A DNA stretch of 56,951 nt, counting the filler, from Dirinaria sp. TL-2023a (Eukaryota), in assembly GCA_051941275.1 (NCBI GenBank). It is 4 parts of 4 records of this genome, joined end to end, with 100 filler letters (N's around TTAATTAATTAA, not from the genome) between each part and the next. Parts side by side here need not be neighbours in the genome. Positions count along the whole stretch, not along the records: positions 1 to 14,170 come from JAVEBF010000618.1; 3 more parts are not named here. The stretch is one strand, 5' to 3'. A model generated the notes under the pieces. The model was not told the DNA's origin and made no database searches. It saw only the letters and a program-made list of their open reading frames with translations. Within the stretch, counting starts at the first letter, position 1; each line of letters begins with the position of its first letter. Shown piece after piece: positions 1-42,797 of this stretch. The position numbers and the translations under genes were made by a program.

Positions 1-770
1 GAATTAATGATTGATTTCGACGATATAGATATGAAATCTGTTCAAAAAAAAAAAACAATTAATACTCAGCTTTTCCCCCTCTCCCTTTTCTTCTCTTCAT
101 ATCCTCTCATCTCAGATCTTCTCTCTCAGAAGAATTTACTCAAAGATCAGTGATATAATATCGAGAAGGAAAGAAAGAGAGAAAAGAGGGGAGAAACAGA
201 AGATGAGTTGAATTTTGAGATTTTGGATTTGATTGATGATTTGATCGAAGTCTGAAAAAATTTGAGAGGAGAGGAGAGAAAAAGAGAAAGAGAGAAAGAG
301 AGAAGAAGAGGGGGGGGGGAGGAGGAAAGATGGAAGGGATTTTATATTGAATTGGATTTGAATTCGATTGAACACGGATCTCTTTTTCTCAACTTGAACT
401 GTGTTGTATTTGAGATTAAAAATGAGAAGAAAAAGGAAAGATGAAATGCAGGTGTGAGGGAGGGAATGGAGGGAATAGATGCTTACTTTCGATATGCAGA
501 ATGGTTTTTAAAATATGAAGACCGTTTAGAGAAAAAAATATAATGCTCAGCCCCTTTATTCCATTTGCTTTGAAATATACACACGATACCCCCTCCTCCC
601 ATCGCTTCTTCACTACTAACGATGCGATGAGATGCAATGCGATCCATGCATCCCACATCCCCGCTCGCCACCTGGGCTCCAAAAGTGTGTGAACTCGGCA
701 CAAGAATACAAACCCAGAATCGATTGCCTCTATCCTCACCTCCCAATAACCCAAGGGACGGAGGAATGAA

Positions 771-3540
771 TCACCGTGCAAAGATCTTCACAACGCCATC
801 CCCGCCTCCGGACAGAACCCATCGGCCATCCTGGGCCCAGACGACGGCGCAGACGCCTTCGCCGCGCATCAGGCGGTGGCTGGTGAGTTCCTGCGTGCAG
901 CTGCGCTTCTCCAGGCTCCAGAAACGCAGGCTGGCGTCGTGGCCCGCGCTGACGAGTTCCCGGCCGTCGGGCGAAAGGGATAAGGCGGCGATGGCGGAGG
1001 GGTGGGCGAGCATGCTGTAAGTGCATTGACCTAGAGGGGGAAACATTTAGCTAGTAGAATAGAAGGGCGAACCCGAAGAGGTAGACATGAGAAAAGAAAA
1101 GTGGGAACGACGGAACATACCGCTGTTGGCATCGAAAAATCGGATAAACCGATCTTCATGCCCACTCAATATCATTCCCTCAACGCCGGTGCTGCTCCCC
1201 GTTGCCCCATGAACAACGCTTTCATCCTCCGATACACCCCTGCCCGCATCGAGGCTCAGACTGCCGTCCAGCCCTACAGTCGTCGCCACCACTGCGTTCA
1301 CCCCTGTAGCTGGTGTACCGTCGTAAGTCTCCAAGCTAGCCATCCCGACCATCTCCTCGCCGGTGCGAGTACCGTAGATCAGGACCGATGCATCCGCGAA
1401 TGAGACGACAAAGGTATCGCCGGACATGGACAGCGGGGATATACAGGTTGGCGAAGGCGCACCAACGCGCTCGATCCGGTGCACGAGTGAGTGATGAAAC
1501 GGTCGAGTCGTAGCCGTACTCGGTTGAGGGGAGGACGGAAAGTTCGAACCTGAAGAGACTGAGTTCGCTCTTCTGCTGCCGCCTGCGCCTCGCCTTGATC
1601 CACCGCCTGATGTTGACATCTGAGGCGGCGTGCTCACAGCCCAGATAAGAATCGTGCCGTCTGCACCGCCCGAAGCGAGGACAACGCGGTCCGGTCCACC
1701 ATGATGCATGCATTGGTCTCCGAGGACTGAGGCCGAGGTACCGGGGAGGACGCAGACGGTCCAGACAGCGTCGGTGTGTCCGTCCAGCGTCGCTTTAGGG
1801 TCCACACGACCCCGTTCCCACACCCGTACAGTGGCGTCTTGCCCTCCGGAGAAAACCCACCCATCGCCGTTGGCTCTACCGCCGTTCGAGAAGTTCTGAG
1901 ATGCGGGTGATGCTGCCAGTGAGAGGACGGAGCTAGAATGGCCTCGGTGGGAGAAGAAGCTTGTAATATCTAGGTCGGTGCTTGTAGATGTGCTATGGGG
2001 TCCAAAGCCGCCATAGCTTGTAGGTATGTACCATCGCTTGATGATGCCATCGTCACCACAGGTGCATATTTCGGGCTCCGATGGACTGCCCCCTCCGGTG
2101 AATATGACTGAGCGAACAACGTCTAGATGGCCTCGCAACGCAAAACGAACTTTGAATTGCCCTGGCTCGCCTTTCGTGCTACCATCGGTGCGGGACGAAG
2201 AGAGTTCTCTTATTTCATGTGATCCATCGCTTTGCCTTCTGCGTGATAGCGAGCTTTTTCTCCGATGCGAGCCTGGACCTCGCGTTGGTGATTTTAGTGA
2301 CAAGTCGTTTGCATTTGGAAAAGGATCCGTGTCTCGTCTTTGAGGTGCATGATATTCAGGGGGAGGCTCGTCGGCCGCTGTAGGTTTCAGAGGATCACCG
2401 AAATCCCAGCCATCAGCATCCGCTGCTTCAGGCTCTGATATCCTTGAACTTTCCTGTTCTTCTCGTGTAGGTACAGCCCGCCCGTAGGAGTCGTAGCTAT
2501 GTGAGACCTTTTCAATCTGATCCTCGGGATTTGAAAATCCGTACGACTGCGGTCGATCTCGAGTATCAATGGCGGTCATAGGAGGTTGATGCTGTAGTGG
2601 CCGTTCAGGCATACTGCGAGACATGAAGGAGGCTTGTTCTGGCTGTTGCGTACCACGGGATAGAGGTGGAAGTTCGGATACTCGTGGTACAGGAGGTGGT
2701 TGATGGTTTGGAAGTGGTGAGGGCCCTAATATGCCGAGATTATTATTCTGCTGCTGCTTTTGCCTTTGAACGTATACTTCTTCAAGCGAAGGCTGTGGTT
2801 GTTGGTTGTTGGCGAAATGATGGTTTTGGAGCATTTCCTGTTCCTCGGTATACTGTTGAGCGTTGGTAGTAGGTACGACGTGATACGTGACTTCTTGCAG
2901 GCACTTCTGCAGGTATGTCCGAGACTTTTCTCGTTCTGTATCTTGCCTCAGGTCTGGCGATGTGTCTTCGGCCTCAAGGTCCAAGAATGAATTTCGCGGT
3001 TTCGGAGGTTCAGCTACAAGTGTATCAGCATTGTTATCGCATCCTAGCGGTTTACCCACGTTTCGTATCTTTTTTAGGCTTGGGCATGGGAACTTCCTTT
3101 GCCTCGTCCGGTTCTTCTAGCTTCGCTCCTGATTGCAGAGCCTTGACCTTCTCGCGCTCCTTTTTCAACGCGTTCTCCAAGATTTTGACGTGCTTGCCCA
3201 GCGATTCCTGCAACCGCTTGTTCGTGCGTCCATCCCCTTCAAGCTTCCCAATCCGAGACTTCATCTCCGCCCGCTCTATCTGCCAAGCATTGCGATCTCG
3301 CTCGTGTCGATGCCATTCAGTCTGCAGAAAGCGCATTACCCCTACTTTGGTCAGTCATCACACGACTACATGCACCTCACGTGGTCTTGGGCCAATTCGC
3401 AGATTGATCGGAGTCCCGCGAGACGCACCTTGAAGAGTGTATTCGGTGCCATGAGGCTGTCCACCACTGCCAGAAGCCTCGCTTCCTCCACTTGCACTTC
3501 CTCCATTGCCCACCATGGCGCCAGAGTTCTGCCAGGCCAT
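771..3540 (-). CDS. pro11: Striatin family STRIPAK scaffold (PRO11/HAM-3/Far8-like), 4 exons
   Basis: N-terminal striatin motif [37 protein letters not shown] (coiled coil) and C-terminal WD40 repeats ([28 protein letters not shown]). GT-AG introns at 3428-3342, 3059-3014 and about 1121-1032 join ORF-track pieces 3358..3549, 3052..3336, 1047..3059 and 771..1046. Confidence 0.95.
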
Positions 3541-4295
3541 GAACGGCACTGGCCTCTTCGCACGGCTGCACTATAAGTTGCGCCACTATTAGATCGAGAC
3601 CCTTTAATTTGGAGAGGCCTATAGCTAATTTCGATACGTCGGCAGTCTCAAAGAGCCCTGTTGCAGAGACGACTGCAAGCTCGTCCTTTCGCCGTTGGGA
3701 GTAGAAGAGGGGAAGGTTTCGCGGAGTTGTGTTTTCGCCTGTGGTCTGTCAAGGAGGAGTTGTGACTTTTCCGGATCGCGTTTTCATGCTCGGTGAACAG
3801 AGGACATAGCTCTTGGGAATCGAGATGCAGATTGTGAAGTGCAGGAACGATTTGCGTACCCTGGCACTCATGGCGTCGGCGCTTTCGAGGACACGCTAGT
3901 CTCGATGTAGGCACTTACATACGGGACCTGAGGTAAGAGGTGACTTTAGGTCTCTCCCTAGGGTTGCGTGCCACTACCACACAAGTACCCTAAGGTAAGG
4001 TACCGAGGGTACTCGCACCTCAAGTACCCCTGGGTCCCTTTTGCTTAACCTTACCTTCACTACCTCTATCTTACTATACCTACTATAACTACCTTAAAGG
4101 TACTCTACTTATTCCTCTATCGGCACGTAGGCATCAAAACGTCCTGGTTATAGTTCGGGATCAAATTTGACATGATAACGCATTGAGCAGTCTCATGACA
4201 TAACCATGCGTGACAGACAAGGCTTTACTGATGTACGAGTACAACGTACAGTACTTACTCTGCAACGAATACGAATATATGACCACCTCGCTGAG

Positions 4296-5480
4296 CTAGA
4301 ACTCCAATTCTTCCACTTCCATCCCACACTCAATACACGTTTTGACTTCGAGCCCTTCTTCATTCTGAACAGGCCTACCCCATACATGATTGTGCTTCCC
4401 ACCTTTACTTATCTCATCGCCAAATTCACCTCCGCCGCCTCCAGCCTGCCTGCTCCGTCGATAGGCCTCCACTCTCGTCTTCTTCTTCAGTTCCTGCAGC
4501 TTTGACTTGAATTTATCCTCCTTCCGCTTCTTTTTGCCCGATTCCCGCTTATTGAACTCTTCGTCCAACGCCTCTGCGGAGCCCCACTTCTTGGTGAACG
4601 CATATTCCTCGACTTGATATCGTAGGAAAAGCATCATGTTGTTCCACGTAGACTTATGGGGATTCGGTCGCTCAAGATGCGGCAGTAGTTCCTCGTCTCT
4701 GAGCTCCGGGTCTGTCAAGAGATAGTCCTCTTTGGCCTCGGTCTTGGTGAGCAAGCTGTACTTCTCCGGGAACTTCTCTTTGCACCCGTTGCAGACCGCG
4801 CAGCCGAATACGTCTTCCCATTTCCAGTCGATCTCCAAAGTGCCACACTCCTTGCATACTTTATTGTCCTCCTTTTTCAGTACGCTCAATCCCGGCTCGT
4901 ATGGCCCTGCCTTCTGATCCCGCAATGATCGTAATAATTGATGCCTTTCCCACTCCTTCAAAGTCATGTGCGCAGGTTTCTCCTCCTGATTAGGTGCATG
5001 TAGCTGCCTGTTATGTGGATCGTCCTCCGCCGTCAAGAAGCCCCCCTTCGTATCGGTCATCTTGCTGAAGTCATAATCAACAAACTTCGTAAAATTCCTC
5101 GCTGGCTGGATTTCGTCCAGTGGTCGGAAACTCCCGTTTCTCTCAGGCTCCTTGCTTCGTGCATCTCGCTGAGTCGCAGGAATACTGGATGTGGATATGG
5201 CGGAGTGGGCGCGCTTTTGCCCGGCCGCCACATTGCTTGAGGAGGAGCGCTGTAACGAAGAACCAGTATTATGTTGGCGGGCTTCGGTTTCTCGCTGGTT
5301 GCGAAGGGCCTTGGCTTTCAGCCGATTGATTTCCTGTACGTGACATCAGAGAGGCCATCTACGGGCGGGAATGGTCATACCTACTATCTGCTTGACTTGC
5401 TCTGGCGTTAGGGGCGATCGCTCAACTCCGCCACTGGTATGTGTCGCCTGCAGTGGCGGTGTTGATGGCCGGTCTGCCAT
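4296..5480 (-). CDS. RAD14: DNA repair protein Rad14/XPA
   Basis: DYDFSKMTDTKGGFL motif, C4 zinc finger CKEC...CNGC, YSLLTKTEAKEDYLLTD, NPHKSTWNNMMLFLRYQVEEYA and C-terminal CIECGMEVEELEF. ATG at 5480 (MADRPSTPP...PLTPEQVKQI), one short intron about 5384-5334, then EINRLKAKALR. Confidence 0.95.
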
Positions 5481-5834
5481 GCTTGCAATAATGTAATCCT
5501 ACTAAATTGTAGGAATGCCAACACTATGGAGGTATTTGGCGAGCGAGACTGCAGCGGATAGAAAGGTGTACGGGTTCAGTGACTCATTCGCTTCCACTAA
5601 AGGTATAAAGTTTCGTTGCCAATAGTCGCAGCATGAAGAGGAAAGATTGGTAGACCACCTTGTGCAGTGTTCACTTCATGCATAATCCAAGATTGTATCG
5701 GTCTAATTCATATGTTGCGGCTCTACAGATCTAACCTTAAACGGTAGATGTTTCTACAAACACACCCATTGTCCCAGATCAGGCACTAATGCACACAAGG
5801 TAAAGGGGCAGAATTGCCCGCTGGACGCGGCGTT

Positions 5835-6557
5835 CTATTCTTCTTTGACACCGCCGCTGCCAGCCCGTTCCGCTTGTTCGATACTCTTCTTGTCCGCCTT
5901 AGGATCATTAGCGCCTCCCATACCCATGAAGCCCCCAGCAGCCTTCCAAGGCCTCTTCAGCTCTCCGATAGCCGGCTGACCTAGCGCATGTATCTTGAAT
6001 AAATTGCCTTCGAATGCGCCCTTGAGCGGGATGATCGACTGTATCAGCAGCGGGTTCGTGTACTTGAAATACAAGTGCATGACTGCCATCATTCCAACCC
6101 CCATGAGCTGTGACTTGAACATGGCCCGTAGCTGTTGCAGATCATAGGAATGGATCGTCGTCGTGATCAGCTTGGGTTCTTCGGATGAGCCCATGGGCGC
6201 GGGCTCAACATATTTCAGTGTTGTCAAATCTGTGGAGAGCGCGGGTTAGTCGAGCTAGATCACTGCGTACATGATAGCGAATAGTTTTCACACCTTTCTT
6301 GGAATTGATTTTCATCTGTATCCACAGATATATTCCCGCTATGATCAAGTTTGAGACGACGTATAGCCCCCGGACGCCCATCAAAACTTGCGGATCGTCG
6401 AACGGTATTTTCTTCGAAACCTGCATCATACCGAGAATGATGACCAAGTTGGTCCTTATCGCCGGATGTTAGCCTTCAGTCGCCCATACCGCATTCTGAG
6501 CTCCGGTACACAAAGCTTCAGCGGAAGCCAGAATACTCACACCTGCGGGCTAACCAT
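5835..6557 (-). CDS. PHO88: Pho88/SND3 ER membrane protein (phosphate transport / SND targeting), 3 exons
   Basis: Spliced MVSPQV|TNLVIILGMMQVSKKIPFDDPQVL...INSKK|DLTTLKYVEP...YDLQQL...MHLYFKYTNPLLIQSIIPLK...LKRPWK matches the Pho88 family pattern; GT-AG introns with GCTAAC/ACTAAC branch sites. Confidence 0.92.
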
Positions 6558-7321
6558 GGCGACGGTAAGGCTCTTGGCGCTTAAGGAACGTTGGTGCTTG
6601 ACTTAATGCTCTAAGTTTAGAGATGGGTGGAATAATCGTATTCAAAGGCTGGGATTATCATGTTCTGTGCAATAATATACCGAGTTACGAGTGAAATTTG
6701 TCCTCGATTTCTGTGCTAAGATACGGCTACGGCATACTAAACGGCAAAGTGTGAAATACTGTCTCAAATCCTGAGATACTCCTAAATTCCCAAGTGATAC
6801 TCTCACAATCAAGAAATACCAACAATTCATGGCTATCTTCTCCGAAGCGATTATTAAAGGTAAGCTTGTTTCTTTGCTACCCTTCGACTTAGCCTGGTCA
6901 AATTCTGCTTGTCTCCTTACCTCGTATCTGAATGCCTGTGCCAGTCACTATCCTGACACAGCTCTTGCGGGCAGTCAACGAGCTACCATGCCTTCAAGTA
7001 TTCTACGCATTGGTAAAAGTACTACACTACTCAGCCCGGCCCGCGGGGAACAATGAAATCGATACATTTTGATTAGAATGCAACTGCTGCGCTGTACTCG
7101 TACCCAGCAAGATAACACTTTTGGCGAGCCCTCATCTCACATCTATCATGTCATAATCATGTGCACATTGCTACAAAGGAAAGCAAAAACTCAATACGTG
7201 AAACCTTCCGTTCGGTAATACTAGCATGGTGCCGACGATGGAGTCATTTGGCAATATCAAAAAAGCAGAACCCACCTTCAAAAAGTGAAACCCGCAATGG
7301 GTTTGGCATGCAGAAATCTCT

Positions 7322-10120
7322 TTACGATGCGATGTCACCACAAGATAAGACCAACGACAACATTGCTAGCTTGCTTACTAGCAAGTAGGAGCAGTCGGAG
7401 CAGCATATGGGAGGCCAGAGCCCAGTACCCAAATGCCAATTCGGTTGACTGGGGTAGTCCTGGGACAGCTTGACTGACTGGCTGTACGATTTCCAGGTCA
7501 TTTGAGTGCGGGAGCTGGCCACCAGCAAGTACATGGACCCGATCATAATGGTCATCACGACGAAGGCGCGTGGCTCTAGTCTCGATCTATGATACAGTCA
7601 ATGTTCACTTGCTTGAGACCGTTGCCTGGCTTACGGCGACCGTGGAAGTAAGTAAACGAGCGTCCGATTGAAAGCCAGAATGGAAAGCGAAAGGAGCTGT
7701 ATAGGATCTAAAATATATAGAAGCCATATCATTGCCATAATTGCCAAAGTTTGTTGAAGTATCTGGCAAAGATTTCTTAGCCACAAGTCAAGACCCTCGT
7801 CCCTCAATCTCTGATGTGCGGCATGCAATGACGCGGGGCGCCCGTCAGAGCCAAGCGCTTCATAAAGCAGCTTGAGAGCTCGCGCACCATCTTTGTTGGC
7901 TTCAGGATAAAGAATGGTCACTCTCGAGTCTCCTTGCCTGGATGCCTTCGCGCTAGTGAGGTTCAATACGGCGTTAAAGTTTTGCTTGCGGTCTGGGCCA
8001 ACTACGATTTGTAGTACGGTCCCGGGTTGCGTCTGTTGGTCTTTGATGTTGTTGGAACGTTCGAACGGCTGCTCTATAGTGATCGTATGGCTTAATAACG
8101 TAGCTTTGTTGCGAGACTTGCTGCGCCACTGGTTGTCTTTTTGCTGCACTAGCTCTTCTCCTGAGAGAAATCCAGCAACATGGGGATGCTTAAGGGTCTC
8201 GTCGTGGGTAACTGCTTTGTACGTTAGTGAGCGATGGTCATCGTTAAATGATATAGCGTCCAGTGGCTGGGCCGGCAGATGTCGAGCCATCTTTCTCCCG
8301 GAAGATTCTGTAGCCTGAAGCAGATTCGAGCCTGGGTTTCCATTTGATGCCTTAGACGTCTTCAGAGCCAGATTTTTATTGGTCGCCTGAGGTGTCTTGG
8401 GAGCTAGGCGTGCCCCTAGGTTTTCCCGATGGTAAGTACGCTGGGTTAGGTTCAACACGTCCCGTACCGTCAAACCCGTGTGATCTCGATTTATCAAGCG
8501 CCAACCAGCTTTAACTAGGTGTTCAAATCTTTCGAGATCTCTATCCTGCGCAGCCCTATGCAGAGGAGTCTGCGTGGGTTTCAGGGCCTTCCCGCGCGGT
8601 GGAGATCGGACACATGGAGTCTCTTTCTCCAGCCCGGCGTTCTGGTCGGTGGCAGAGTAATAAACCTTGTACAGATTTAGCTGAGCTTCCCATGCATACA
8701 GACGGCACCCATTTTCTTGCTTCTTCATCATTTGCAGAGCTACTCTCAAAGTTGACCTCAATTTTTCGTCCTTATCCTCTTTTTGTAATTCGTGGATCCA
8801 ATTTTCAACAACAATCCAGTTGTTGTGGAAGGAGCCATCTGGAGTGTGTTGGCTCGCGAGCCTAGTTTTTGTTTTGTTTGGGTTGCTTCGCCTTCGGTCT
8901 CTGAACTCGGCCACTTTCTCGGTGCTCCAGCCATGAACAATTAGGGTCGCAAGCTCAATGATGATGCAACCCATGGCCCAAATGTCGAATGCTCGTCCGT
9001 GCTTCACTTTTGCACGAGATCCGTCATCATTCCAGTACTCCGGAGGGTGATACTCGTATGTTCCCAATCCAGAGCTTGCCTCCGTTTCCGATCCTCGGGC
9101 CAAAGGGCGAAGTTGTGAGCGCCCGAAGTCAGCAAACTTCAATTCTTGCGCGAACACCAGGATGTTCCGTGGTTTCAAGTCATGGTGTGCGGTTATTTTT
9201 CCATTTTTCTCGTGATGGAGAAAAGCAAGACCCGACACAAGTGAGTATATCGAGCGAAAAAGGTATGCCTTTCGATCCGGCTGCGGCAGATCCCTAAGCC
9301 AAGCTGGAGGCTGAGCGCACGCCATCCATTCGAATAGGTCCTTTTCAGCTAATGGGAATAGTAAGTGCAAGGATGAAATAGCGAACTCTGACTCCGTCGC
9401 TTCCAAGGTATAAGATGCCAATAGGGGGACAATATTTGGATGTTCTCTTTCCCGAAGCGTTTCTACTTCACGAAGGTAAAAACGCTCATCTTCGGGCTTA
9501 TCTAAGCGAATAACTTTCTCCGCCACTGTGGTCTGCGTTCCATTAGCAAGCTGGCTATCCCTGAGAGCAGAGTGTCTTACCTTATCATAGCCTTCTAAAT
9601 GACCTTCTGCAATCTCGACTCGAAATATCTGACCAAATGATCCGCGCTTGTCAATTGATTCCCTCCTTGTGAATGGTAACACAGTTTCTTCCGATATATG
9701 CAGATGCGTACCCTTCCTCAGGATTGGCGCAAACTTGTGGCACTGCGCATCAAGCCTTCGTCGTTCGTCATAATGCAAATCCAAGCAACTGTAGTCGATA
9801 TGAGGGAGAGAGTCGTCGCTCTGGCCAGAGGAGACAAGGGCGAAGGTGAGACATTCGAGTTCTGCCGCTACTAGTATTGCAAACAGTAGGCGACAATTGT
9901 CCAATATGCGGCCGATCGTATCGTGGTCATGAGCACCAATATCTGAGCGTCGATGAAGGCGATGGGTTTCCATCCAGGCGCAAATCGTATTGTAAGACAG
10001 CAATCGCTCGACTTCTGCCGTACACAAGAATTTTTGCCCCTGGTGATTTTCGATTTGTGCGGGAAGCGTGCGAAGAAGCTCACGGAGAGTAAGGCCACCC
10101 ACAGAATCCGATAAAGTCAT
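7322..10120 (-). CDS. Non-RD Ser/Thr protein kinase with ankyrin repeat(s) and C-terminal hydrophobic (TM) segments
   Basis: Kinase motifs RGSFGQIF, VAEK, REVETL, HPNIVPLL, HHDLKPRNIL, DFG, GTYEYHPPE, DIWAMG, then ankyrin-like TPLHRAAQ. An in-frame intron (GTAAGA...GCTAAT...CAG) lies near 9581-9531. A 48-nt phase-2 intron 7634-7587 (CC|GTAAGC...TTGAC...TAG|A) extends the ORF-track end at 7631 into frame 7322..7558 (SRLEPRAFVVMTIMIGSMYLLV). The exact 3' end is uncertain. Confidence 0.85.
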
Positions 10121-10239
10121 AGCCCTTTCGTTTTCACACCGGTCTCTTTAGGCCAGTATATCTGCTGGGCCAATCTTAGGTGATAGGTCTAAACTCACGT
10201 GGTGTATTATTTGGCCTTCAGTATATGGTTGAATATTGT

Positions 10240-10825
10240 TCATGAAGAGATCTTTCGGATATCGAGTATATCTGTGCGGTATGGCGAATTGATGCTAGTA
10301 TCCTTTACCTGTAGTGATAGTGTGAGTGGCAATTGTCGCTTGCACACGTGCAGACGGGGGTTTTTACCCAGTATTTCTTCGAGTCCTCACTGCTGCCTCC
10401 TTCGTCCTGGATTTCGCCACGCCGCCACTTGCCTGGGAAAATTCAAAATATCAGCTAAGATCAAAAGACTTCCGCTAGACCTAAGCGAGAAAATGGCTGA
10501 ATGCTGCAGCCTGGATGGTGTCTTGCGGAGACAAATTATCGTAAGTAGATGATAGTTGACTCTAGGCGCCGTGGGATTTCTATATATAAACCAAGGGGCG
10601 GGCAAGCTGAGGACCCAGTGCCGATATTCATAATCAATGTCGTGAGTCACGTGGGGGGTTGCTCAATCCGCAGGGAGCGCGTGGAGCCAGATCCAGGGAA
10701 TGGAAAGCGCTCGTAAAGCAAATGAGATATGGAGACGTACCACAGCGGAAGTAATACACCTTATCGGATATATTGTAGGATGTCTCCTCGGTGCATCCTG
10801 CTGGAGGATTCGGACGTGAGGACAT
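10240..10825 (-). CDS. Small 72-aa protein with SH3/Tudor-like beta-barrel pattern, 3 exons (not assembled in the ORF track)
   Basis: Exons 10825-10741, 10432-10368 and 10308-10240. Intron 1 is GTACGT...GCTGAT...CCCAG; intron 2 (59 nt) is GTAAAA...CTCAC...TACAG; phases are compatible. Product: MSSRPNPPAGCTEETSYNISDKVYYFRCGKWRRGEIQDEGGSSEDSKKYWVKDTSINSPYRTDILDIRKISS*. Confidence 0.6.
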
Positions 10826-11476
10826 GTTCTCTACGATGACGATGAGCGGCGACAATGAGAGTCTGCTGCTAAAGAGGTTTGGAATGTACGCATTTGAAGC
10901 AAGTGATTTCAACGTGCTCCAAAATCGTGCTGGATACGAAGTTCAACAAGGCTGAGAAGGATTGGGGTATGATAAGACGGCGGTTGCAGCATGACGCACA
11001 AAAACTTTAAGATGCCAGTCTTCCCTCACCGCCGATCGGCCTCTCGCAGACTCGCACACATCTGGCGTTGCTTACTTAAGATAATAATGTGTTCGAGCTC
11101 AGCCTTGGTAACCTGATGGCTGCATTTGACCCACGCTTCTTGAACAATTGGCAAGTTGGGTCTCTACAGCATTCTTCACTCCGAGATATCGGAATCAGGA
11201 GAGAATCCACACAGTATTTGATGAGCCTCCGAAACCTATTGTGACAGGACTTATGTTCTTATTTAGGGCAGAACTCGGGCAGTACCTGTGAGACCAGTAG
11301 ACACTCAAGACACCTGAACGGCGCGGGCCGAGCTGGAATCTTCGGCGGCCAGCCTCGTTAAGGGTAAGGTAAGCCTTCCGGCGCCCGGTCCATGTACGTA
11401 AGATGTTCGTATAATCATGGATCTCTCTATACCTTACCTTGCCTTGATTCAGCTCTGACATAAGCTTACGGCCAGC

Positions 11477-13680
11477 ATGGCAGAGCCACTGTCCATTGCT
11501 ACCTCAACCATTGCAGTGGTTGGCTTTGCTGCTGAATCCAGTAAGTCTGCGTTCCAATTTCTCCAGGGGTTGGCCCACACGCCAGCCCACGTACGTGATT
11601 CCTTACGAATACTGGACTCGTTACACGTGACCTTGACCAGCCTTCAACAAAGTAGTACCAGGCTCGATCCAAAGTACAAGTTTCCGGAGCATTTCTGCCA
11701 TAGACTTCACGAGTGCTTGAATGATCTAAAAGCCTTTGAGACCAAGATACGCAAGATCGATGCTATCTTCGGCGAGAAAGGAAAATTTAAACACGCAAGA
11801 AGGTCATGGGAGAGAATAAGATGGCCGTTGGTCGGAGAGCAGGAAACCGGAAGATTCCTAGAGAAAATGAAAATGTATCAACATGTATTCTCTCTGGAAC
11901 TTCTGAATCTGCTGATGTGAGTTCGACTCGGCTTTAGTAAGGCCGAAAGCCGCAATGGCTAAGGCTAGTATACAGAGTCATCAATGGATCTCCTTCACCT
12001 TCGATGGGTCTGCCAGGGCCGGCTGTGGCAACTTCTGTTTCGGTGGGTTCTTCTTCGAGTCCCCCACTGGCCTCTCAATTTGCCCAACCGGCGCAATTCC
12101 ATCAGGACCCTGTAACCACAACACGGCTCTCTATTGAACGATTGCCGCTAGCTACCAGTACCCGGGATCTGGAGGGCTCGATGTACTCCATAGATCCATG
12201 TAAACCCGTAGACAGCTGTGGCACGTTCAGAGAGGACGCTATACTTGGTCATCCCACATCATATTTGCCGTCCCCTTCACTACGGGTAGAGTTCATGCAG
12301 CGATGGAGTTGCTTTCACTGCGAGTTTGCAATCCGCGGAGGTTCGGCTATCGTCCTGGATTTGAAGCCAAAGCAGAAAGCCCAGTCCTCGGCTCAATGCC
12401 GAAAAATTGGGGTTGGGTTCGGTCTGTCCTTGATGATGCCGGAGCTTTGTCGCAAGAAACTTGAAATAGCTCTCTATCTTGTTCGAACCACGTTCCTGTC
12501 TCGAATGAGGCTCACGCTTCACTACGATATAGAATTCCCGAGAATCATCCCCCGAAGCGCGGATATAATGCAGTGCGTAGAGGAGGGTTTGGTAGACCGC
12601 GTGCAAGGTTTAATAGGCGATGGTAAAGCAACATCAAGGGACATTACAATACACGGCACCACGCTGCTGCACTTGGCCATGAGCACCAGCAACTTACGGT
12701 TGATACGGTTGCTCATCCAGGAGGGTGCAGACGTGAATGCTCACGACGATGACGGAGAGACGCCACTCCATTGGGCAATGGCTAGGGATGGCAACTACGA
12801 AGCTGCGAGAGTGCTGATTGAGAGTGGCGCGGATCTTGGGAACAATAGTGTCGACGAAAGTACACCATTGCACACGTATTTCAATGACACCGTCGCCAAG
12901 GTCCTTTTGTGGGATGACTGGATCGAAGAAACACATCCGAACTCTCAAGGAATGTCGATTGCCCATTTCTTGGCGTGGAGCAGCAAAACCACTCCTGAGC
13001 TTTTCAAACGAGGTACGGCACACACATCAACCGGCTTGTGGTCCGTTGACGGCTTTGGAAGGACATGCCTGCATCTCGCCGCATCGAGGGGAAATGTCGA
13101 CCTTTTGAAGTATCTTCTTGAACGAGCCAGCTTGACTGAGGTTCGGCGGGCGGATAATGAAGGGTGTACGGCTCTTCATTACGTGGTGCAAAGCAGGAAA
13201 CGATTGAGCTCCATTGACTTACTACTTGCTAGCGGGGGAGATCTCCACGCGAAGGACGACGCCTCTCGAAGTGTCCTACATCATGCTGCGCGATGGGAGA
13301 ACTTAGAAGGGGCTCAGAAAGTGGTTGCTTTAGGTGACCGTGAAGTCCTTCTGGCTCCGGACAAAGAGGGATACTTGCCCTCGCACTTAGCTCGAAGCCC
13401 GAAAGCAACAGCCCTTCGAGATTTTCTGACCGATCTCGAATCAGCGGCAAGCCATGGTGCGGTTTCGAAACAAGAGCCTTCGAATTATCAAGGCCCAGGC
13501 ATAGATTCGTTTCCAAAAAGGAGATGTATTGCACTATCTTTGACACTGCTTCGGGGTATTATGATGGCGTTCACGATTCTCCTTTCTGCGTTGAGATCAA
13601 CATCTGTGCACGATGCTATGATATTTGTGTTTCCAGTGGTCATCTGTATTTTGTTACCCCTGATTCAAATCGGTCTTTGA
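11477..13680 (+). CDS. HeLo-like (fungal N-terminal) domain + ankyrin repeats + C-terminal hydrophobic segment(s), 714 aa, 2 exons
   Basis: N-terminus MAEPLSIATSTIAVVGFA...CLNDLKAFETKIRK...WERIRWPL is typical of HeLo-like N-terminal domains. Intron 11917-11975 (GTGAGT...GCTAAG...TACAG) joins it in frame to 12004..13680. Ankyrin repeats: GTTLLHLA, GETPLHWA, GRTCLHLAA, GCTALHYV, SVLHHAA. No NACHT/NB-ARC P-loop was seen. Confidence 0.88.
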
Positions 13681-14068
13681 AAACAAATGACTAGGTCACC
13701 CTAGTTGATGGTTGAGATCAGTCGATTGAATAGACTAGAACAAACAGCAAATCTGTTTAAATTGTTACCAGGCATAATATCTATGCTTGAGCATGTAAGG
13801 CCACTCTTTCTGGCGCATAGATACGCTTCTGAGAAGCTGAGGGATTTCGCGGAGCAGAGGAGCAATTATGCCACAGGCCTTAATGGCTGTACTGAAGTGT
13901 GTTCCAGTCTCTTTGACTGCAAATCTGATAGCTTGATTACCTAAGGTAGCTTACTGTAGACAATTCCACCAATCAAAACCGAGTATGGCTCACTAATGTC
14001 ATTCCCTTCTACGGCCACCACTATCAAAGCTGTTCACTGATCAGACAGATCTCGACTTCTAATCAACA

Positions 14069-14170
14069 ATGTTGATAAATAGCCTCACGCTCGCGCTCCT
14101 CTTCCCTCTCACCCTCGCCGCCGACCTACGGCTTTCCATCCCCTCCCATCTCCCCGCCCTTCCACCCCTG
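14069..14170 (+). CDS. 5' fragment of a signal-peptide protein, probably EMC7-like, truncated by the assembly gap
   Basis: MLINSLTLALLFPLTLAADLRLSIPSHLPALPP: a signal peptide followed by an L.LSIP...LP.LPP motif recalling fungal EMC7 N-termini. It runs into the Ns, so identity rests on about 34 codons. Confidence 0.45.
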
Positions 14171-14678: not shown

Positions 14679-17104
14679 TCACTGATAATACCCACCACCA
14701 TACCCAGGCTGAGGAGGAGGCGGCGCATTGGGATCATACCCCTGAGGTGGATATCCACCATACTGAGGTTGAGGCGGATAACCTCCTTGTGGCTGAAATT
14801 GGGGTCCTGGTCCTTGCTGCCACTGCGGAGGCGGCTGTTGCTGTCCATAGCCACCTTGAGTCTGATACGGCACGGGGCCCTGGCTCTGCGCGTACGGGTC
14901 TTGCTGGTACTGCGGTGCTGAGGCTTGTTCATATGCAGTTGCGGGGCCGGTCGGTGGCCGCGTGCTGTCAAAGGCGGTGTCTGTCCCTGGGAAAGCGCTG
15001 GGGATGTTCTCAGCGTCATCGACGCCGTCTCGTCGTAGGCCGGTCGCGTCACGGAATTTGCCCAGTTTCTCCCAGGGCGCGTTGCTCAGCTTGCTGTGGC
15101 TGCCGGGGCCGAAGATGTTCGACATCCCCGGGATACCGCTGGGCATGCCGGGTATACCGCTACCGTGGCTATGCGGTGCATTGGCGTCGAGGCCGATGTG
15201 ATTCTTGCCTGCGCGCACGCTTTCGGAGGAAAGGATAGTATTTATGTCGGGAAGGTTGTTTGGCCGATTGTGAGCCCAGCGCTGCACAGTATCGTACATG
15301 TTCCTGTGCAGCTCACAGTGAGGATCTCGAAGTACAGGGTGGTGGAAGACTCGCGACACATCGTTGAGTACTTCGTGGATGGGGACGCCAGGATTTTGCC
15401 ATGCGAAGATGATGCGTGGTGCGACGTATTGTAGAATACAGGCGGCAACTTGGCCAGCTGGTTCGTTCAGAATGTTAGAGAAATGATCTTTCGACAGCAT
15501 ACTATGGGTTGGGTCACTGCATTGGGGGTTCGTCCATGGTTCGTATTGGTGCTTGCCACTCGTATCTATGACTGCGGAACTGCCGGTCTTCAGCTGCTTA
15601 GAAACCGCATTGATGATAGGGCGGATGAACGGCGCCAACAGCGACAGCACGAAGAGTGTCAAAGTCTCGGTGATCTTTTCGACGAGCGCCTCAAGACCGG
15701 GTATTTTCTCGATCGTCGCGGAGATGGCTTTCACTACTTTATCTCGAAACTCAAGGATCGGGTAGATCTTGCGGGCGGTTTCTTGAGGGTTGAAGTCTGC
15801 GCTGAGACCCGGAATGCCTGGTCCCGGAGGACCACCCGTACTCCCAGGAGGAGCGTCGAAAGTTGGAGGTGCTGACAGTGGGGCATCGCGAGTATTTCTC
15901 TCTGCTTGAGCGTCTGACTGCGCCTGCAGTTGTCCAGCTTCCTGAATTAGGCTGCCTGCGCCTGGAACCTGCCCAAGGAGTCCGGTCATGCTTGACAATT
16001 GCTGAGAGCCTCCAAACCCACGGCTGCTGCCGCCTTGTTTCGATTGGGCTTGTGCGTCGCCAAGGGCTTTCTCCATCTGCTCAACTTCGGATTGAGCAAA
16101 ATTATCTTGGGCTTCTCCAAGTACTGCTAGGTGTCAGCAACTTGTCTAAATTCTCCCTTTCGCAACTAGAAAAAAGGTCGCAAAATCATGAAACAACCTA
16201 CCGGAGTGCAGAAAGTCAACGACACCGAAAGTCCCAGTCACAAGCGGATACGCTCGATGGCCTCGGAGATTTATCTCTGTTGCAGTACCTGTGTGTGGAA
16301 ATACATTCCCATACCCCATGTCGCGAAGTGCGAGTTCCGTGTAATTAGTATGAGCTCCAAAATCCTCCAAGCAATGCAAACCCTGGCCCAGACATCTGAG
16401 CGCTTCGCAAAGATCAGCTTCCCGGCCCTTGCTACTCCCTGCACCACTTGTATAAAGTCTGCCGAAGTGAATGCTTCGTGTGAAACTATGCTTAATATAG
16501 CCAGCGCTAGTCGCGATACCAATATTCTCATTAGCTATGTAGTTCTTCATCCCGGTATTGGGATCGATTTCCAACTCGATAGGCTGGACCGGAGGCCGTA
16601 GCCTTGGATCATACTTTCTCGCATCTTGATTATCTGCGTAGTCTTTGGGGTTGTCAATGTGCTCCTCGGGCCTATAAGTCCCTAGCCGTTCCTCTGTGAC
16701 TTCGAACTCTGCGGTTGCATATCCGAATGCCAGAAACGAGAGAACCCAGACCAGGATCCGAATAGTCGCGGATTGAATACCCTTCAGAGTCCCCACGTCT
16801 ACTGCTTGAGAGTAATCACGTAACCAGTTGCCGAAGTAGACGCGCTTGATCATCATGGAAGTCCACTTGTGGCCATGGATGAAGGCCACAGTCTTGAGCA
16901 TGTCTTCAATATCTCCATGACGCCAATTATGTCCTTCAATCTTCGAGATTGAAGCTACTCATGTCTCAGTCGAGTTTTCTTTTTCTCCAAGAGTAAAGAT
17001 CAAGACCTACCGATGTTGCCGGCGCCAAAGGCGGTTGTGGGAGAGGCATACAAAATCAAACACACGAGAAAAATCGAAATGGACCAAGTACGAGAGATAG
17101 CCAT
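14679..17104 (-). CDS. het-c: Heterokaryon incompatibility HET-C family protein, 3 exons
   Basis: Signal peptide then AFGAGNI|ASISKIEGHNWRHGDIEDML...RVYFGNWLRDYSQAVDVG...ERLGTYRPEEHIDNPKDY...GQGLHCLEDFGAHTNY, DPTHSMLSKDHFSNILNEPAG, and a Gly/Pro/Gln/Tyr-rich tail. Introns at 17010-16955 and about 16201-16124. Confidence 0.93.
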
Positions 17105-22345: not shown

Positions 22346-25300
22346 TCATTGCTGGCCCTGGGTCATGTTCTGTAACTTTTCTCGTTCGGCGTCGTTCAGG
22401 GAGTGGTAGAGGTCTTGGAACCGTGGATCATTGCCGATCGAGTGGAAGAATCCGACGATATAGCGTTGAGTTTCGTCGTCCGAGGAGCGGTAGTTCCAGC
22501 GTGATTCGTCCAGCACGCCCATAAGGTCTATCAAGTGATCAATTAGCAACCCTCAGCTAGTAGTGTGTCTTAAATTTAACTTACCAGCACGGGTAGATGG
22601 GCTAGACAGGTCAAGGATGTTTGGCTCATCCTCCCACTCGTCATCATCGTCATCACTCGCATGCCCGTCTGTGCTGAACTTGGCGCCACGGAAGTTGCTA
22701 CCTGTAGGTGACGGCGGAACCAGTTCTTGGATAAGCACCTAGAATTGGCTTGCATCAGCACGTTCTCTCTAGATCTGATCCATGGAAAGGGAAACAAATT
22801 ATGAGCGTGACATTGAGGTTACGTCCAGGTACGTTGCTGTTACGAAGGGAGCGGAGGCATGAGAGCGAAAGCAATACTCACTTTGACCAGCTTCAGAGGC
22901 ACTGCAACCGTGGAGAATTGGTCAGGCTCGCGTTTTGATTGGGATCTAGTCTTAATCCGGCTTGTGTTTTGGACGATTAGGTCACCCTGGACCAGGATAC
23001 CGGAGAGTCGCTCATCGTGGAGACCGTAGATGTTCGTTAAGGCGACGACATTCTGACGAATCTCGTCGTAGCCAGAGAAGTTGACTGAGTTTTCCAACCA
23101 CTTTCTCATTACTACTTCGAGGCCAGTTCCAGGGTTGGGTTCCGGAACTTTGACTTGAGATAGAAAGTCAACCACTTCTTGAGCATTGGTAAGGCAGAGC
23201 CGAGCAAAGACCATGACCAGGTTCTGAACAAAATTGGCGTGAGTAGCGGTGCTCAAGCGTATTGCTACGATCTGTAGGAGTTGCATGAGATATGGTCCAA
23301 GCTTTTCTGCACCGGCTTTCTCGACCAGCTCTACAGCAAGACCACCAACCTCAGCAGCCGACGCATCTGCAATGTTGGGGCCCAGTAGACGATCGATGAC
23401 GAGCAGGATAATCTCGAGTCCACCTTTGCCAGTATCTGTATCCTGCCAAGCAAAGACTTGTTCGGGGTCATGAGCGAGTAAATGCTTGATAGTGACTGTT
23501 GCTGACTGATGAATGCTGAAGTCAACGCTCGAGAACAAGAGTCTGTATAATTTAGGCATCACTGTGGCAATGAAACCCTGCGGTAGCGGACTCGGGCCAT
23601 TTTCAGCAAGGCTCGACAGCAATGATACAGCCATATCGCTGAGCGAAGCCTGCTCCGTCATGTCTGCTACATCAAGTGCTCCGGTTAATGTAGGTAGTAC
23701 TTTGGCACAAAGATGTGCATACGGCTCAGCACCCATTGAAGCCATAGCTGATGTAATTGACTCGAAGGCCTCGTTCACAAGCATGGTGGTCTGGAAACTG
23801 CTCGCACCTTGCGACGCCAAGGTAAAAAGCACGTCGAGCGCGGGATGATCTAGGCATTGGCTCGGCGACGCCATGATGGTATCGCGAAGAGTCTCAACGA
23901 GCGTATCTAGAAGGTCTTCGCTCTCTTTGAGATCTTCTAAATCAAGCTTCGAGACGAACTTCGAGATTGCAGCTACTGTTCTCTTTTGAAATTCGGGAGC
24001 ACGCGTTGAGGGCAAGGCTTTCATATATTCTTGCATTGAGCGGATGCAGGACACTCTTACAATCTCCTGGGGACTCTCTTCTAGCGCATTAAGTGTCTGC
24101 TGAGCGAATTCGGGTATTAGATTGACAAAATGGTCACCTGGAGCAGTGACGAGCGCCGCGGCCAGGATGTACGCTCGCGCGGTGAGAAAGTGTTCACTGG
24201 CAGCTACGATGCGTCAGTCGAACAGATCGTAGTACTGAAATGATTGGAAAGCCGTCATAGAGTGGTAGATCGAGCAGGGCCAAAGGAGTACTTACTGTCT
24301 TGCATTGATGCTCGAATGTGATCCAAGAAAATGCGAGCAGCGTCGACGTCCATAACCTTATCGTAAGTTCTGAACTCATCAAGCACTTGCTTCAGCACGA
24401 ACAGCGTGGCTTCCTGCATTTTATATCTGCGTTTAACCCAAGTTAGCATCCCATTGATCGTGAGTTGAGACGAAACTTGCACCACTCACTCTGGCGTGCC
24501 TTGAGACTTGGCTCCACCGGCAAACATAGACTTGCTGAAGTTCAAGAGGCTTTGAACAACCGGAGCTGGCCAGTTACAGAGCTTCACAATGAAGTTGGAG
24601 CAAGCGCTTCGCGTCGAATAATTTGATGTCTCTGCCGTCTCTTCTGCTAAGAAAATGTTGACATCAATCTCCCACATGCCCTCGTCATCCGTGGTAATCT
24701 GGGAGTATCCGACCAAAATCGCTATGACCTGTGCGATCCAAGTCCCGCTCTCGGTAGCATTTGTGACCGTCTCTGGGGTCAGCTGCGCGTCTAGTTCGCG
24801 CCTTACCGTCCCTGTACCAATAAGAGTCTGAATGTAGTCAATCTCTTCCATGACCAAGAAATCAAGTGTGTATGGCAATCTGTCTGCATCCTCCATACGG
24901 CCTTGTCGGTCGCCATCGATGTACATGGCAACATATGGTGCCAGTTGGAGCTGCAGACCCTCCCATACAGCGCTGAAGAGATTCAAGGTATGCGCAGTAA
25001 GGAGTTGCGGGAACAATGTTTGGATCTTGTCCAGTGCCTAACCTAAATCAGCATGTAATGAATGAATATGATGACGCAACGCTTACTTTTACCACTTGTG
25101 TCTTCAACGCGACGACTCCTCGCCATGCATTGATTACCGGGCCTCCTGCATCTTCCTCGTCCTCCGACGGCAAATTCGGTAGCGACAATTTCAGGACGTC
25201 AAGAAAGAAGGGAGCCCACGCGTCTGACGCCTCTTGCATGAACTGCTTGACCGATGTCCTATTCGTTTGGTATACCAATTCCATCGTGTCGAAGCAGGCG

Positions 25301-25899
25301 CGGAAGATTGAAACCGCCAAAGCTCTCGATGTCAATTTCTTCTCGCTGTCGACGGATATGTCGTACAAACACTTCACCAGCTCCACTGCCGAAGCAGAAA
25401 ATTGCTCTTCGTCGAACCCATCTTCTACCAAATTACCAAGGACCACCAATGTACTATGCAGCTGGGCTGGGTCTGCCTGGCGAACCAGCTGCAACAGAGT
25501 GGGGAGTAGAGCAGGCCATGCTTCTGGAAAGTCTGCGCTTGCTATTTTGCTGACCACATCGCTAGCAGCACGAACAACTTTGCCTTCTTCGTCGCCACTT
25601 GTGGCCAGTGACAGGAGTGATTGGCGCACTTGGTCCTTTGTAGGGGCGCTGATGATAGCACCGGCTTCCTCGTACTCTTCTAGCGACGACGACCAGCTCT
25701 TGAGCACCAACCTCTTCAAGCTGAATAGCGCGGACTGGCGTAAGTCTCGGGGCACGGAGGCGTGAGAGGCTATGGAGATTAGGGAGATTGGGAATCGCTC
25801 GTTAGTGGAGAGCTCTGATAATTGGCGCTCCGCGTCATGGCGGACTGCATCATCGGATGCTAGCGTTGCAGAGAGCGAAGCAAGCACTTGGTCCTCCAT
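22346..25899 (-). CDS. KAP114: Importin-9 / karyopherin Kap114, multi-exon
   Basis: IBN_N domain (MEDQVLASLSATL...RHDAERQL...RQSALFSLKRLVLKSWS), KIASADFPEAWPALLP, RMEDADRLPYTLDFLVMEEIDY, AAEVGGLAVELVEKAG, VQGDLIV...RIKTRSQSK..PDQF...VPLKLVK, acidic DDDDDEWED and final DDETQRYIVGFF. Pieces are separated by GT-AG introns. Confidence 0.9.
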
Positions 25900-26171
25900 C
25901 TTGATGTCTCCGAGCTCAAGGCTGCTTCCGACCTTCAATTGATGCTCGGTGGCTCCGTCAATGTCATGCGGTGTTTATTCCAGATCGTTCTTCGAGCTAC
26001 TTTAGCTGAATTTCGGACGCGATTGAACGCGCTGGAGCTATTCGATAGCGCTTGGCCGGATGAGTTAAAGTGCAGCAGATAGGATGTCTTAACTCGACGA
26101 GGACTAGACTTGTATAATGTCCTGTCCGCAATGAGATGAGTTCTGAGTTGCAAAATTGACCATCAACAAAC

Positions 26172-28439: not shown

Positions 28440-28539
28440 NNNNNNNNNNNNNNNNNNNNNNNNNNNNNNNNNNNNNNNNNNNNTTAATTAATTAANNNNN
28501 NNNNNNNNNNNNNNNNNNNNNNNNNNNNNNNNNNNNNNN
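28440..28539. other. Artificial contig-joining linker
   Basis: N-run with central TTAATTAATTAA. Confidence 0.97.
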
Positions 28540-42697: not shown

Positions 42698-42797
42698 NNN
42701 NNNNNNNNNNNNNNNNNNNNNNNNNNNNNNNNNNNNNNNNNTTAATTAATTAANNNNNNNNNNNNNNNNNNNNNNNNNNNNNNNNNNNNNNNNNNNN
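42698..42797. other. Artificial contig-joining linker
   Basis: N-run with central TTAATTAATTAA. Confidence 0.97.

Follow-up and report, generated by a model that had tools for sequence, protein, structure and literature searches.

The DNA analysed here, referred to below as the window, is a stretch of 56,951 nt (filler included) from Dirinaria sp. TL-2023a (GenBank assembly GCA_051941275.1) and is a concatenation of about four near-equal contigs. Its first contig (window positions 1-14170, from JAVEBF010000618.1) carries two divergent genes, one encoding a protein kinase and the other, here called the partner, encoding a protein in which an N-terminal HeLo-like domain is followed by ankyrin repeats and a hydrophobic C-terminal anchor. 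Judged from comparison with related proteins, the pairing is conserved, the two genes constituting a two-gene module of lichen-forming ascomycetes. An earlier description made from the DNA alone (the sequence-only reading) had proposed a three-gene module, comprising the kinase, a "small beta-barrel" protein of 72 aa and the HeLo-like ankyrin protein, with a possible necroptosis-like or allorecognition function. The head-to-head layout of kinase and partner on a single contig was confirmed, and the module was reduced to two genes, the 72-codon open reading frame (ORF) most likely being an upstream ORF within the kinase transcript, not a separate gene.

Once a 48-nt intron is removed, the kinase gene encodes a protein of 813 aa that matches the Pfam Pkinase family at 83.5 bits (cut-off 31.7, E = 2e-23) and contains the motifs VAEK, HHDLKPRN and DFG. 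The catalytic loop reads HHD, with no Arg before the catalytic Asp, which places the protein in the non-RD class, just as had been read from its HHDLKP motif; kinases of this class are over-represented among those of innate immunity. HHDLKPxN is present in 114 of 120 kinase relatives and DFG or DLG in 112, and in an alignment of 71 relatives residues H312, H313, K316, P317 and N319 are invariant and the catalytic motifs invariant or nearly so. The kinase therefore looks catalytically intact, as far as its residues allow this to be judged. Preceding the catalytic core is a conserved N-terminal domain for which neither a Pfam nor a PDB sequence match was obtained and which in the protein atlas is represented only by nameless ascomycete clusters; a comparison of the HeLo-like profile with the kinase family using hhalign revealed no likeness (probability 0.2).

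The C-terminal part of the window kinase differs from that of its family, most members of which carry a C-terminal ankyrin array. The single ankyrin repeat attributed to the protein by the sequence-only reading is recognisable by alignment to orthologues and has no Pfam match, the remainder of the array being degenerate. The C-terminal hydrophobic helices noted previously are likewise present in the window, although a comparable tail is found in only 4 of the 120 family members and is lineage-specific and not a family trait; the notion of a membrane-anchored kinase sensor, which rests on this tail, is accordingly not sustained.

Transcript data for the locus come from assembled RNA contigs of three runs, all belonging to one lichen-metagenome sample of one study and placed at 90% likeness. 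The contigs are ∼5% divergent from the window (for example, 97 differences in 1837 bases) and hence derive from a close relative and not from this genome; the kinase gene of that ∼5%-diverged relative is transcribed and spliced. Three joints were observed (9532/9581, 10306/10366 and 10431/10740), each of them GT..AG on the minus strand. The 48-nt intron among those so defined lies in frame within the coding sequence, and intron-blind gene calls (P0001 in the window and P0002 in a relative) translate it, which adds 16 residues ahead of the kinase beta-3 strand, whereas the NCBI-modelled orthologue P0004 is devoid of these intron-derived residues. Orthologues align by tblastn to the kinase in a single frame, from 10063 to 7856. 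Extension of the coding sequence as far as 7322 is unsupported and would need a splice at a GTAAGC that overlaps the stop codon; RNA contigs descend only to 7696, and no conclusion is drawn from the missing cover over 7200-7695.

At its other end the kinase mRNA begins at or beyond 10830, giving a leader of at least 340 nt that is spliced twice. The 72-codon ORF starts at the first ATG of the leader seen in the RNA contigs, runs across both leader introns and stops 119 nt before the kinase ATG. One contig from each of two runs (X2 record 6 and X3 record 9) is continuous from the exons of this ORF into the kinase coding exon, and a contig of the third run (X1) connects the three leader exons. 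As its exons are linked in the RNA contigs to the kinase coding sequence, the ORF is interpreted as belonging to the kinase leader, with the proviso that assembled contigs do not strictly distinguish one transcript from two overlapping ones. What had been called a 72-aa gene thus stands as a spliced ORF and falls as a gene of its own, and nothing supports the beta-barrel label: the 72-codon ORF matches no Pfam family, and its unspliced 63-aa version matches only DUF7053, at E = 0.07.

The two-exon structure of the partner gene is mirrored by the full-length orthologue P0123, residues 1-144 and 154-716 of which align by tblastn in two frames that match the two exons, with nothing further; the gene has stayed intact along 97-99% of its length. 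Exon 1 matches PF17111 over residues 2-142 (38.0 bits against a cut-off of 27.2). This family, formerly Helo_like_N and now PigL_N in Pfam, is the HeLo-like family of the fungal NOD-like receptor (NLR) literature, according to the available excerpt of PMC9815663. PF17111 is also matched by 64 of 69 aligned exon-1 relatives and by the orthologues P0123 and P0238. An exhaustive search with the HeLo-like domain recovered 107 cluster representatives at E ≤ 0.001, most of them ∼145 aa long and ending where exon 1 ends, so that the domain appears as a separate exon in many relatives.

An AlphaFold2 model of the HeLo-like domain (predicted local distance difference test score, pLDDT, 86.8; predicted template modelling score, pTM, 0.78) is a five-helix bundle with helices at residues 4-30, 37-62, 71-99, 107-119 and 121-145, and the highest 15-mer hydropathy falls on residues 5-19, in the N-terminal helix. 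Structural neighbours of the model include MLKL, the RPW8-like coiled-coil (CC-R) domain of NRG1 and plant coiled-coil (CC) domains, but unrelated bundles score equally well or higher (Cbl TKB 11.1, dynactin 10.9, IncA 10.7). Foldseek found no match to the model in the PDB at E ≤ 0.001, and the family profile retrieved from PDB sequences only coiled-coil noise (coronavirus HR1), the NRG1 CC-R domain appearing at E = 0.35. The predicted fold is compatible with the HeLo/MLKL/CC class and does not prove membership of it. The N-terminal domain expected by the sequence-only reading is, in short, HeLo-like by Pfam, with a model that does not rise above unrelated bundles in fold searches.

Beyond exon 1 the partner has a variable linker and a conserved middle domain, the latter with no match in Pfam, the PDB or the protein atlas, followed by ankyrin repeats that are 59-65% identical to those of orthologues. 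A strongly hydrophobic 19-mer lies within the last 80 residues of 107 of the 120 partner relatives. No NACHT, NB-ARC or kinase-like domain was detected in the partner by Pfam scan, and the earlier description of a HeLo-like, ankyrin and transmembrane protein lacking a nucleotide-binding domain was therefore accurate. An IQIG tetrad resembling a RIP homotypic interaction motif (RHIM) at the C-terminal end of the partner is not shared by any of the 120 partner-family proteins listed and was judged a coincidence. RNA cover of the partner gene consists of a single 158-nt contig (13028-13185) from one run, and again no conclusion is drawn from the missing remainder. The coordinates of these features are collected in Table 1.

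Table 1. Features of the kinase and partner genes and of their surroundings, in window coordinates.
Feature	Position	Strand	Remarks
Kinase gene as transcribed	7631..10830	-	From ORF, RNA contig joints and tblastn with orthologues
Kinase ORF	7631..10120	-	829 codons unspliced; ATG 10120, stop 7631-7633
Kinase exons in RNA contigs	10740-10830 (5′ end open), 10366-10431, 9581-10306, 9532 down to at least 7696	-	
Kinase N-terminal domain, ∼165 aa	9626..10120	-	Conserved in family
Kinase intron, in frame	9533-9580	-	48 nt, GTAAGA...CAG, no stop codons; skipped in 3 of 3 runs
Kinase catalytic core and conserved post-kinase region	8633..9532	-	HHDLKPRN at 9164-9187
Recognisable ankyrin repeat of kinase	8441-8575	-	Visible only by alignment to orthologues
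Degenerate equivalent of orthologues' ankyrin array	7811-8353	-	In-frame alignment to P0002, P0004 and P0014
Hydrophobic C-terminal tail of kinase	7646..7753	-	Kyte-Doolittle 19-mer score 1.97
Leader intron	10307-10365	-	59 nt, skipped in RNA contigs
Leader intron	10432-10739	-	308 nt, skipped in RNA contigs
72-codon upstream ORF (most likely)	10240..10825	-	ATG 10825, across two leader introns, stop 10240-10242
Partner gene	11477..13680	+	Two exons, 714 aa
Partner exon 1, HeLo-like domain	11477-11916	+	146 codons + 2 nt; PF17111
Partner intron	11917-11975	+	59 nt, GTGAGT...CAG, phase 2
Partner exon 2	11976-13680	+	Linker, middle domain, ankyrin repeats, anchor, stop
Ser/Thr/Pro-rich linker, variable	11977-12201	+	27% Ser+Thr against 14% elsewhere
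Conserved middle domain, ∼110 aa	12199-12555	+	Alignment of 61 relatives
Ankyrin repeats	about 12532-13416	+	Pfam ANK families; Ank_2 E = 1.2e-31
Hydrophobic C-terminal anchor	13528-13677	+	Followed by stop
Striatin-like WD40 gene	1050-3116	-	ORF/Pfam scan, first contig
XPA homologue	4299-5345	-	ORF/Pfam scan, first contig
Pho88	5838-6468	-	Pfam scan; upstream of kinase/partner pair
Artificial contig junction	14171-14270	.	N-run + six-frame stop linker TTAATTAATTAA + N-run
Het-C homologue	14679-16958	-	PF07217, E = 9e-152 and 5e-99 for two ORF pieces; second contig

Conservation of the pairing was assessed by counting kinase and partner relatives as sharing a contig when their contigs were of exactly equal size, the partner relatives listed being the best 120 of 1625. 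By this measure at least 36 of the 119 kinase relatives listed sit on the same contig as a member of the list of 119 partner relatives (28 of 79 when only contigs of at least 10 kb are considered), whereas a control of 120 Het-C proteins produced no match to either list. Adjacent locus tags were found for 7 of the 23 kinase relatives that carry NCBI names. The tags are consecutive in Loekoesia (kinase Q9225_006638, partner Q9225_006637), cf. Caloplaca sp. 3 (Q9219_005516, Q9219_005517), Pyrenodesmia sp. 2 (Q9184_006528, Q9184_006529), the Eurotiomycete Pyrenula sp. 1 (Q9160_004245, Q9160_004246), Bacidia gigantensis (KY384_006794, KY384_006793) and Blastenia (Q9170_005874, Q9170_005873), and are separated by one tag in Wetmoreana (Q9181_006583, Q9181_006585); for the other 16, none of the best 120 of 1625 partner relatives has a nearby tag. 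The closest protein matches of the window proteins are all from lichen-forming Lecanoromycetes, and within the paired clade those members that bear a name are lichen formers from two classes. A scan of metagenomes yielded three loci, one of which (L001, 2347-10120, from a soil or environmental metagenome) encodes a 33%-identical kinase with one ankyrin repeat only (3343-5040, plus strand) and a PF17111 and ankyrin partner (7872-9922, plus strand), so arranged in tandem as against divergently in the window, with ∼2.6 kb of unassigned ORFs between them. No partner lies within the 6.8 kb of L003, which has a 26%-identical kinase, and L002 is too short to tell. The linkage anticipated by the sequence-only reading thus holds for the two large genes.

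The two proteins also share their descent. Distance matrices computed for the kinases and for the partners of 37 pairs are correlated (r = 0.89, a value reached by none of 2000 permutations), and in 21 of the pairs the nearest neighbour is the same for kinase and partner; this correlation reflects joint descent, as expected of co-inherited neighbours, and not interaction. In a tree of 115 kinase cores (5 of the 120 sequences, which have no HxD motif, being dropped), the 35 paired kinases are found in each of the three subclades of a clade of 102 rows with a Shimodaira-Hasegawa-like approximate likelihood ratio test (SH-aLRT) value of 100, and none occurs in its 13-row sister clade, which includes Monosporascus, Trapelia and P0054. 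The partner tree contains three matching major clades, each with paired members, and one six-row clade with none. Kinases of Pyrenodesmia sp. 2 fall into two of the subclades, which are therefore paralogous lineages.

A connection to immune-type receptors is provided by two of the 120 kinase relatives that are fused to NTPase modules of the signal transduction ATPases with numerous domains (STAND) type. P0054, which is 49% identical to the window kinase, comprises Pkinase, NB-ARC and TPR domains; P0010, 55% identical, comprises Pkinase and the start of a NACHT-type NPHP3_N domain that is cut by the contig end. P0010 nests within the subclade of the window kinase, among ankyrin-type kinases, which suggests that its ankyrin array was recently swapped for a nucleotide-binding and oligomerization domain (NOD) module. 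The kinase and HeLo-like domains of the pair both recur in the NLR literature: in the consulted part of PMC4986451, twelve N-terminal effector classes are given for fungal NLRs (Table 1 of that paper), PKinase and HeLo-like among them, and the HeLo-like (PF17111) class makes up roughly one in five of the annotated NLR N-termini of fungi. Fungal HeLo/HELL executioners are described in the excerpted texts of PMC12881547 and PMC10197012 as controlled by NLRs, through amyloid templating or direct fusion, and control of such executioners by a kinase is described there only for the animal RIPK/MLKL system; the latter text also holds the hydrophobic N-terminal helix to be essential for HeLo/HELL killing. 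No description of a kinase/HeLo-like-ankyrin pair was found by full-text searching of the literature (subscription journals and supplements being outside the scope).

Around the observed gene models, domain identities, conserved pairing and co-inheritance a mechanism can be drawn in which physical interaction, phosphorylation, membrane damage and any role in cell death or non-self recognition are inferred, kinase control of a HeLo-like membrane effector being plausible. The likeliest working model, at somewhat less than an even chance, is that the kinase protein senses and signals and that its HeLo-like neighbour acts as a membrane effector anchored in advance. The partner would be held in a membrane by its C-terminal anchor, with the HeLo-like head, linker, middle domain and ankyrin repeats facing the cytosol. 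On sensing a cue, the kinase-ankyrin protein would phosphorylate or dock on the partner, and the HeLo-like head might then be released to insert into and disturb the membrane in the manner of HeLo/HELL domains and of the MLKL four-helix bundle, the outcome being a control of a HeLo-like effector that involves neither an NLR nor amyloid. A more ambitious version, in which the pair is a necroptosis-like two-component fungal death switch operating without NLR or amyloid templating, a sensor composed of a non-RD kinase and ankyrin repeats phosphorylates the HeLo-like, tail-anchored executioner encoded beside it, and the module has been duplicated into at least three lineages and is a candidate for recognition of symbionts or other non-self in lichens, must be considered unlikely at present.

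Comparison with characterised systems indicates both kinship and distance. In the HET-S/NWD2 and HELLP/PNT1 systems of Podospora and Chaetomium, as in the window, two adjacent genes form the module, and a HeLo-type bundle with a membrane-targeting hydrophobic first helix stands at the start of the effector, as far as the excerpts of PMC12881547 and PMC10197012 describe it. The gene next to the effector encodes an NLR in those systems and a kinase in the window, where no gene encoding NACHT or NB-ARC lies adjacent or, by Pfam scan, anywhere on the contig (1-14170). Moreover, the window effector, in contrast to HET-S, has a middle domain, ankyrin repeats and an anchor. Only ANK families follow its N-terminal domain and its C-terminus is hydrophobic; there is no C-terminal amyloid signalling motif, which excludes control by amyloid templating. 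The absence of both an NLR and an amyloid motif, which the sequence-only reading had put forward, was in this way upheld.

The animal RIPK3-MLKL pair and the plant MLKLs differ from the window pair in other respects. The best solved sequence relatives of the window kinase are CDK2 (E = 1.3e-13), which accounts for 48 of the 60 listed; there is no RIPK among these 60, the rest being other kinases, and the window kinase contains no RHIM-type [IV]Q[IVLC]G tetrad. It is consequently not of the RIP family, and the RIPK3-like side of the logic inferred earlier fails at the level of sequence. Compared with RIPK3-MLKL, furthermore, the putative executioner of the window lacks a pseudokinase domain, the genes of the two proteins are neighbours and the effector is predicted to be anchored in the membrane beforehand. 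Since the defining features of neither RIPK3-MLKL nor HET-S/NWD2 are present, the module lies outside both: it resembles them in its proposed working and is not a member of either.

With fungal NLRs that have an N-terminal PKinase domain (Dyrka et al., 2014) the window kinase shares its kinase family, as P0054 and P0010 illustrate. In contrast to those receptors, the window kinase and most of its relatives carry ankyrin repeats directly, with no intervening nucleotide-binding domain, and a central NACHT or NB-ARC domain of the kind that characterises fungal STAND NLRs is present in neither window protein; by domain content the kinase-ankyrin proteins would in effect be an NLR lacking its NOD. 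The partner, for its part, shares the order of a HeLo-like N-terminal domain and ankyrin repeats with Monascus PigL/MpigL, and among eight long representatives of this subfamily that were scanned, four carry PF17111 and ankyrin repeats and a fifth ankyrin repeats only. Neither a kinase neighbour nor a membrane anchor is mentioned for PigL in the available part of its description, in contrast to the window protein.

Several considerations weigh against a kinase-controlled membrane effector. The kinase, with CDK2 as its best solved relatives, is not RIPK-like. To our knowledge, every characterised HeLo/HELL effector differs from the partner in not being already anchored in a membrane by its C-terminus. 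PF17111 now takes its Pfam name from the pigment-cluster protein PigL, and a death function is established for few of its members only. The degenerate ankyrin array, together with a ratio of non-synonymous to synonymous differences (pN/pS) of ∼0.76, indicates that the local kinase may be losing its sensor part. Finally, no same-contig partner was seen for 83 of the 119 kinase relatives among the best 120 of 1625 partner relatives, so that the pairing may not be universal, absence not being implied.

A rival reading is that of a pair functionally coupled and non-lethal, in which the partner would be an ankyrin scaffold, tail-anchored in an endomembrane, that brings in the cognate kinase or is under its control in signalling, trafficking or the sensing of stress, the helical N-terminal domain serving for oligomerisation or reversible membrane binding. 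Conserved pairing and co-inheritance would fit any joint function, the likeness to four-helix bundles is generic, PF17111 is also found on ankyrin proteins of pigment clusters (to judge from the Pfam name and what could be consulted on MpigL), and the partner ankyrins are well conserved among orthologues and not hypervariable as in many non-self receptors. Set against this, PF17111 is the HeLo-like effector class to which roughly one in five annotated N-termini of fungal NLRs belong (PMC4986451, in part), kinases of the same family are fused to NACHT or NB-ARC NTPases, and the N-terminal helix of the partner has the hydrophobic character that the consulted part of PMC10197012 deems essential for HeLo/HELL killing; a non-lethal role is accordingly considered rather unlikely. 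It is less likely still that the pair in this genome is a decaying relic that no longer works, with the ankyrin sensor of its kinase lost and a hydrophobic tail of no significance acquired, and such local decay would be compatible with either a lethal or a non-lethal function of the family as a whole. No Pfam ANK match is obtained in the last 309 residues of the kinase even at E ≤ 10, identity to relatives falls to 0.22 for the array, where the relatives reach 0.44 among themselves, and to 0.20 for the tail, where they reach 0.47, and the listed differences from the RNA contigs over 7817-8650 comprise 12 synonymous and 28 non-synonymous changes, the basis of the pN/pS value above, which is rough since only 40 of 138 differences are listed. 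Yet ∼280 codons have remained open, none of the 40 listed differences creates a stop, and the N-terminal domain (0.38 against 0.42) and catalytic core (0.60 against 0.64) are as conserved as in the relatives; in addition the partner is intact, L001 and the NOD-fused relatives illustrate that the kinase module also occurs without a long ankyrin array, and a close relative produces a spliced transcript.

The remaining two explanations are given very little weight. Chance adjacency, or hitch-hiking, of members of large kinase and ankyrin families might be entertained in that both families are multi-copy, with 1625 partner-like matches, and that pairing was not seen for the 83 kinase relatives mentioned, but it accords poorly with at least 36 shared contigs against none in the Het-C control, with persistence of the pairing across two classes and a change of orientation, and with the matching subclade structure of the two trees and the matrix correlation, and is highly improbable. 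A true third gene, its 72-aa product acting as a separate small protein with the kinase and the HeLo-like protein, accords with a 72-codon frame that stays precisely open through two confirmed introns and with the single locus tag between kinase and partner in Wetmoreana; assembled contigs spanning two genes, moreover, do not prove a single transcript. It is nevertheless very unlikely, as the contigs of two of the three runs continue into the kinase coding sequence and that of the third links the three leader exons, the gap to the kinase ATG is just 119 nt, in six of the seven named species the two tags follow one another directly, without an intervening gene, and the product has no family match.

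If the preferred interpretation of a kinase-controlled, membrane-anchored HeLo-like effector is true, the pair would be a testable candidate for phosphorylation-based control of HeLo-like effectors in fungi and would strengthen the evolutionary connection that has been proposed between necroptosis and cell death in fungi. The kinase module appears to shuttle between ankyrin-only and NACHT/NB-ARC architectures, and its distribution points to an immune-type gene family expanded in lichen-forming fungi, the recognition biology of which is poorly known.

The genomic setting of the pair had been given as an interval between PHO88 and an EMC7-like gene. Pho88 is indeed present upstream of the pair, on the minus strand, but EMC7 was not matched by any of 95 ORFs of at least 40 aa (6.2-7.65, 13.6-14.75 and 16.9-21.5 kb), and the supposed frame is in part an artefact of contig concatenation. 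The linker motif seen at the first junction recurs at 28484-28495 and 42742-42753 (the N-runs were read at the first junction only), and gene neighbourhoods across these artificial junctions are consequently meaningless. Only 490 nt separate the end of the partner gene from the end of its contig at 14170, for which reason its downstream neighbour is not readable from the window. The Het-C homologue lies behind the linker on the next contig, its adjacency to the partner therefore being an artefact; in eight named species the Het-C locus tags are far from those of the kinase and/or the partner, and the searched part of the window fragment is 100% identical to a protein from a metagenome-assembled Dirinaria sp. 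genome. On the contig carrying the pair, neither Rfam nor tRNA scans gave a match. The second contig additionally carries an importin-9-like gene (IBN_N, HEAT_IPO9_c; 22843-25974, minus strand) that is split over several ORFs and represents ordinary housekeeping, and on the third contig there are three long minus-strand ORFs (28932-30452, 32254-33837 and 38499-39611; 507, 528 and 371 aa) with no Pfam family at E ≤ 0.001. The last contig (42000-56951) has a GC content of 0.40-0.45, compared with about 0.50 elsewhere, and contains only short ORFs without families; it may consist of DNA that is repeat-derived or affected by repeat-induced point mutation.

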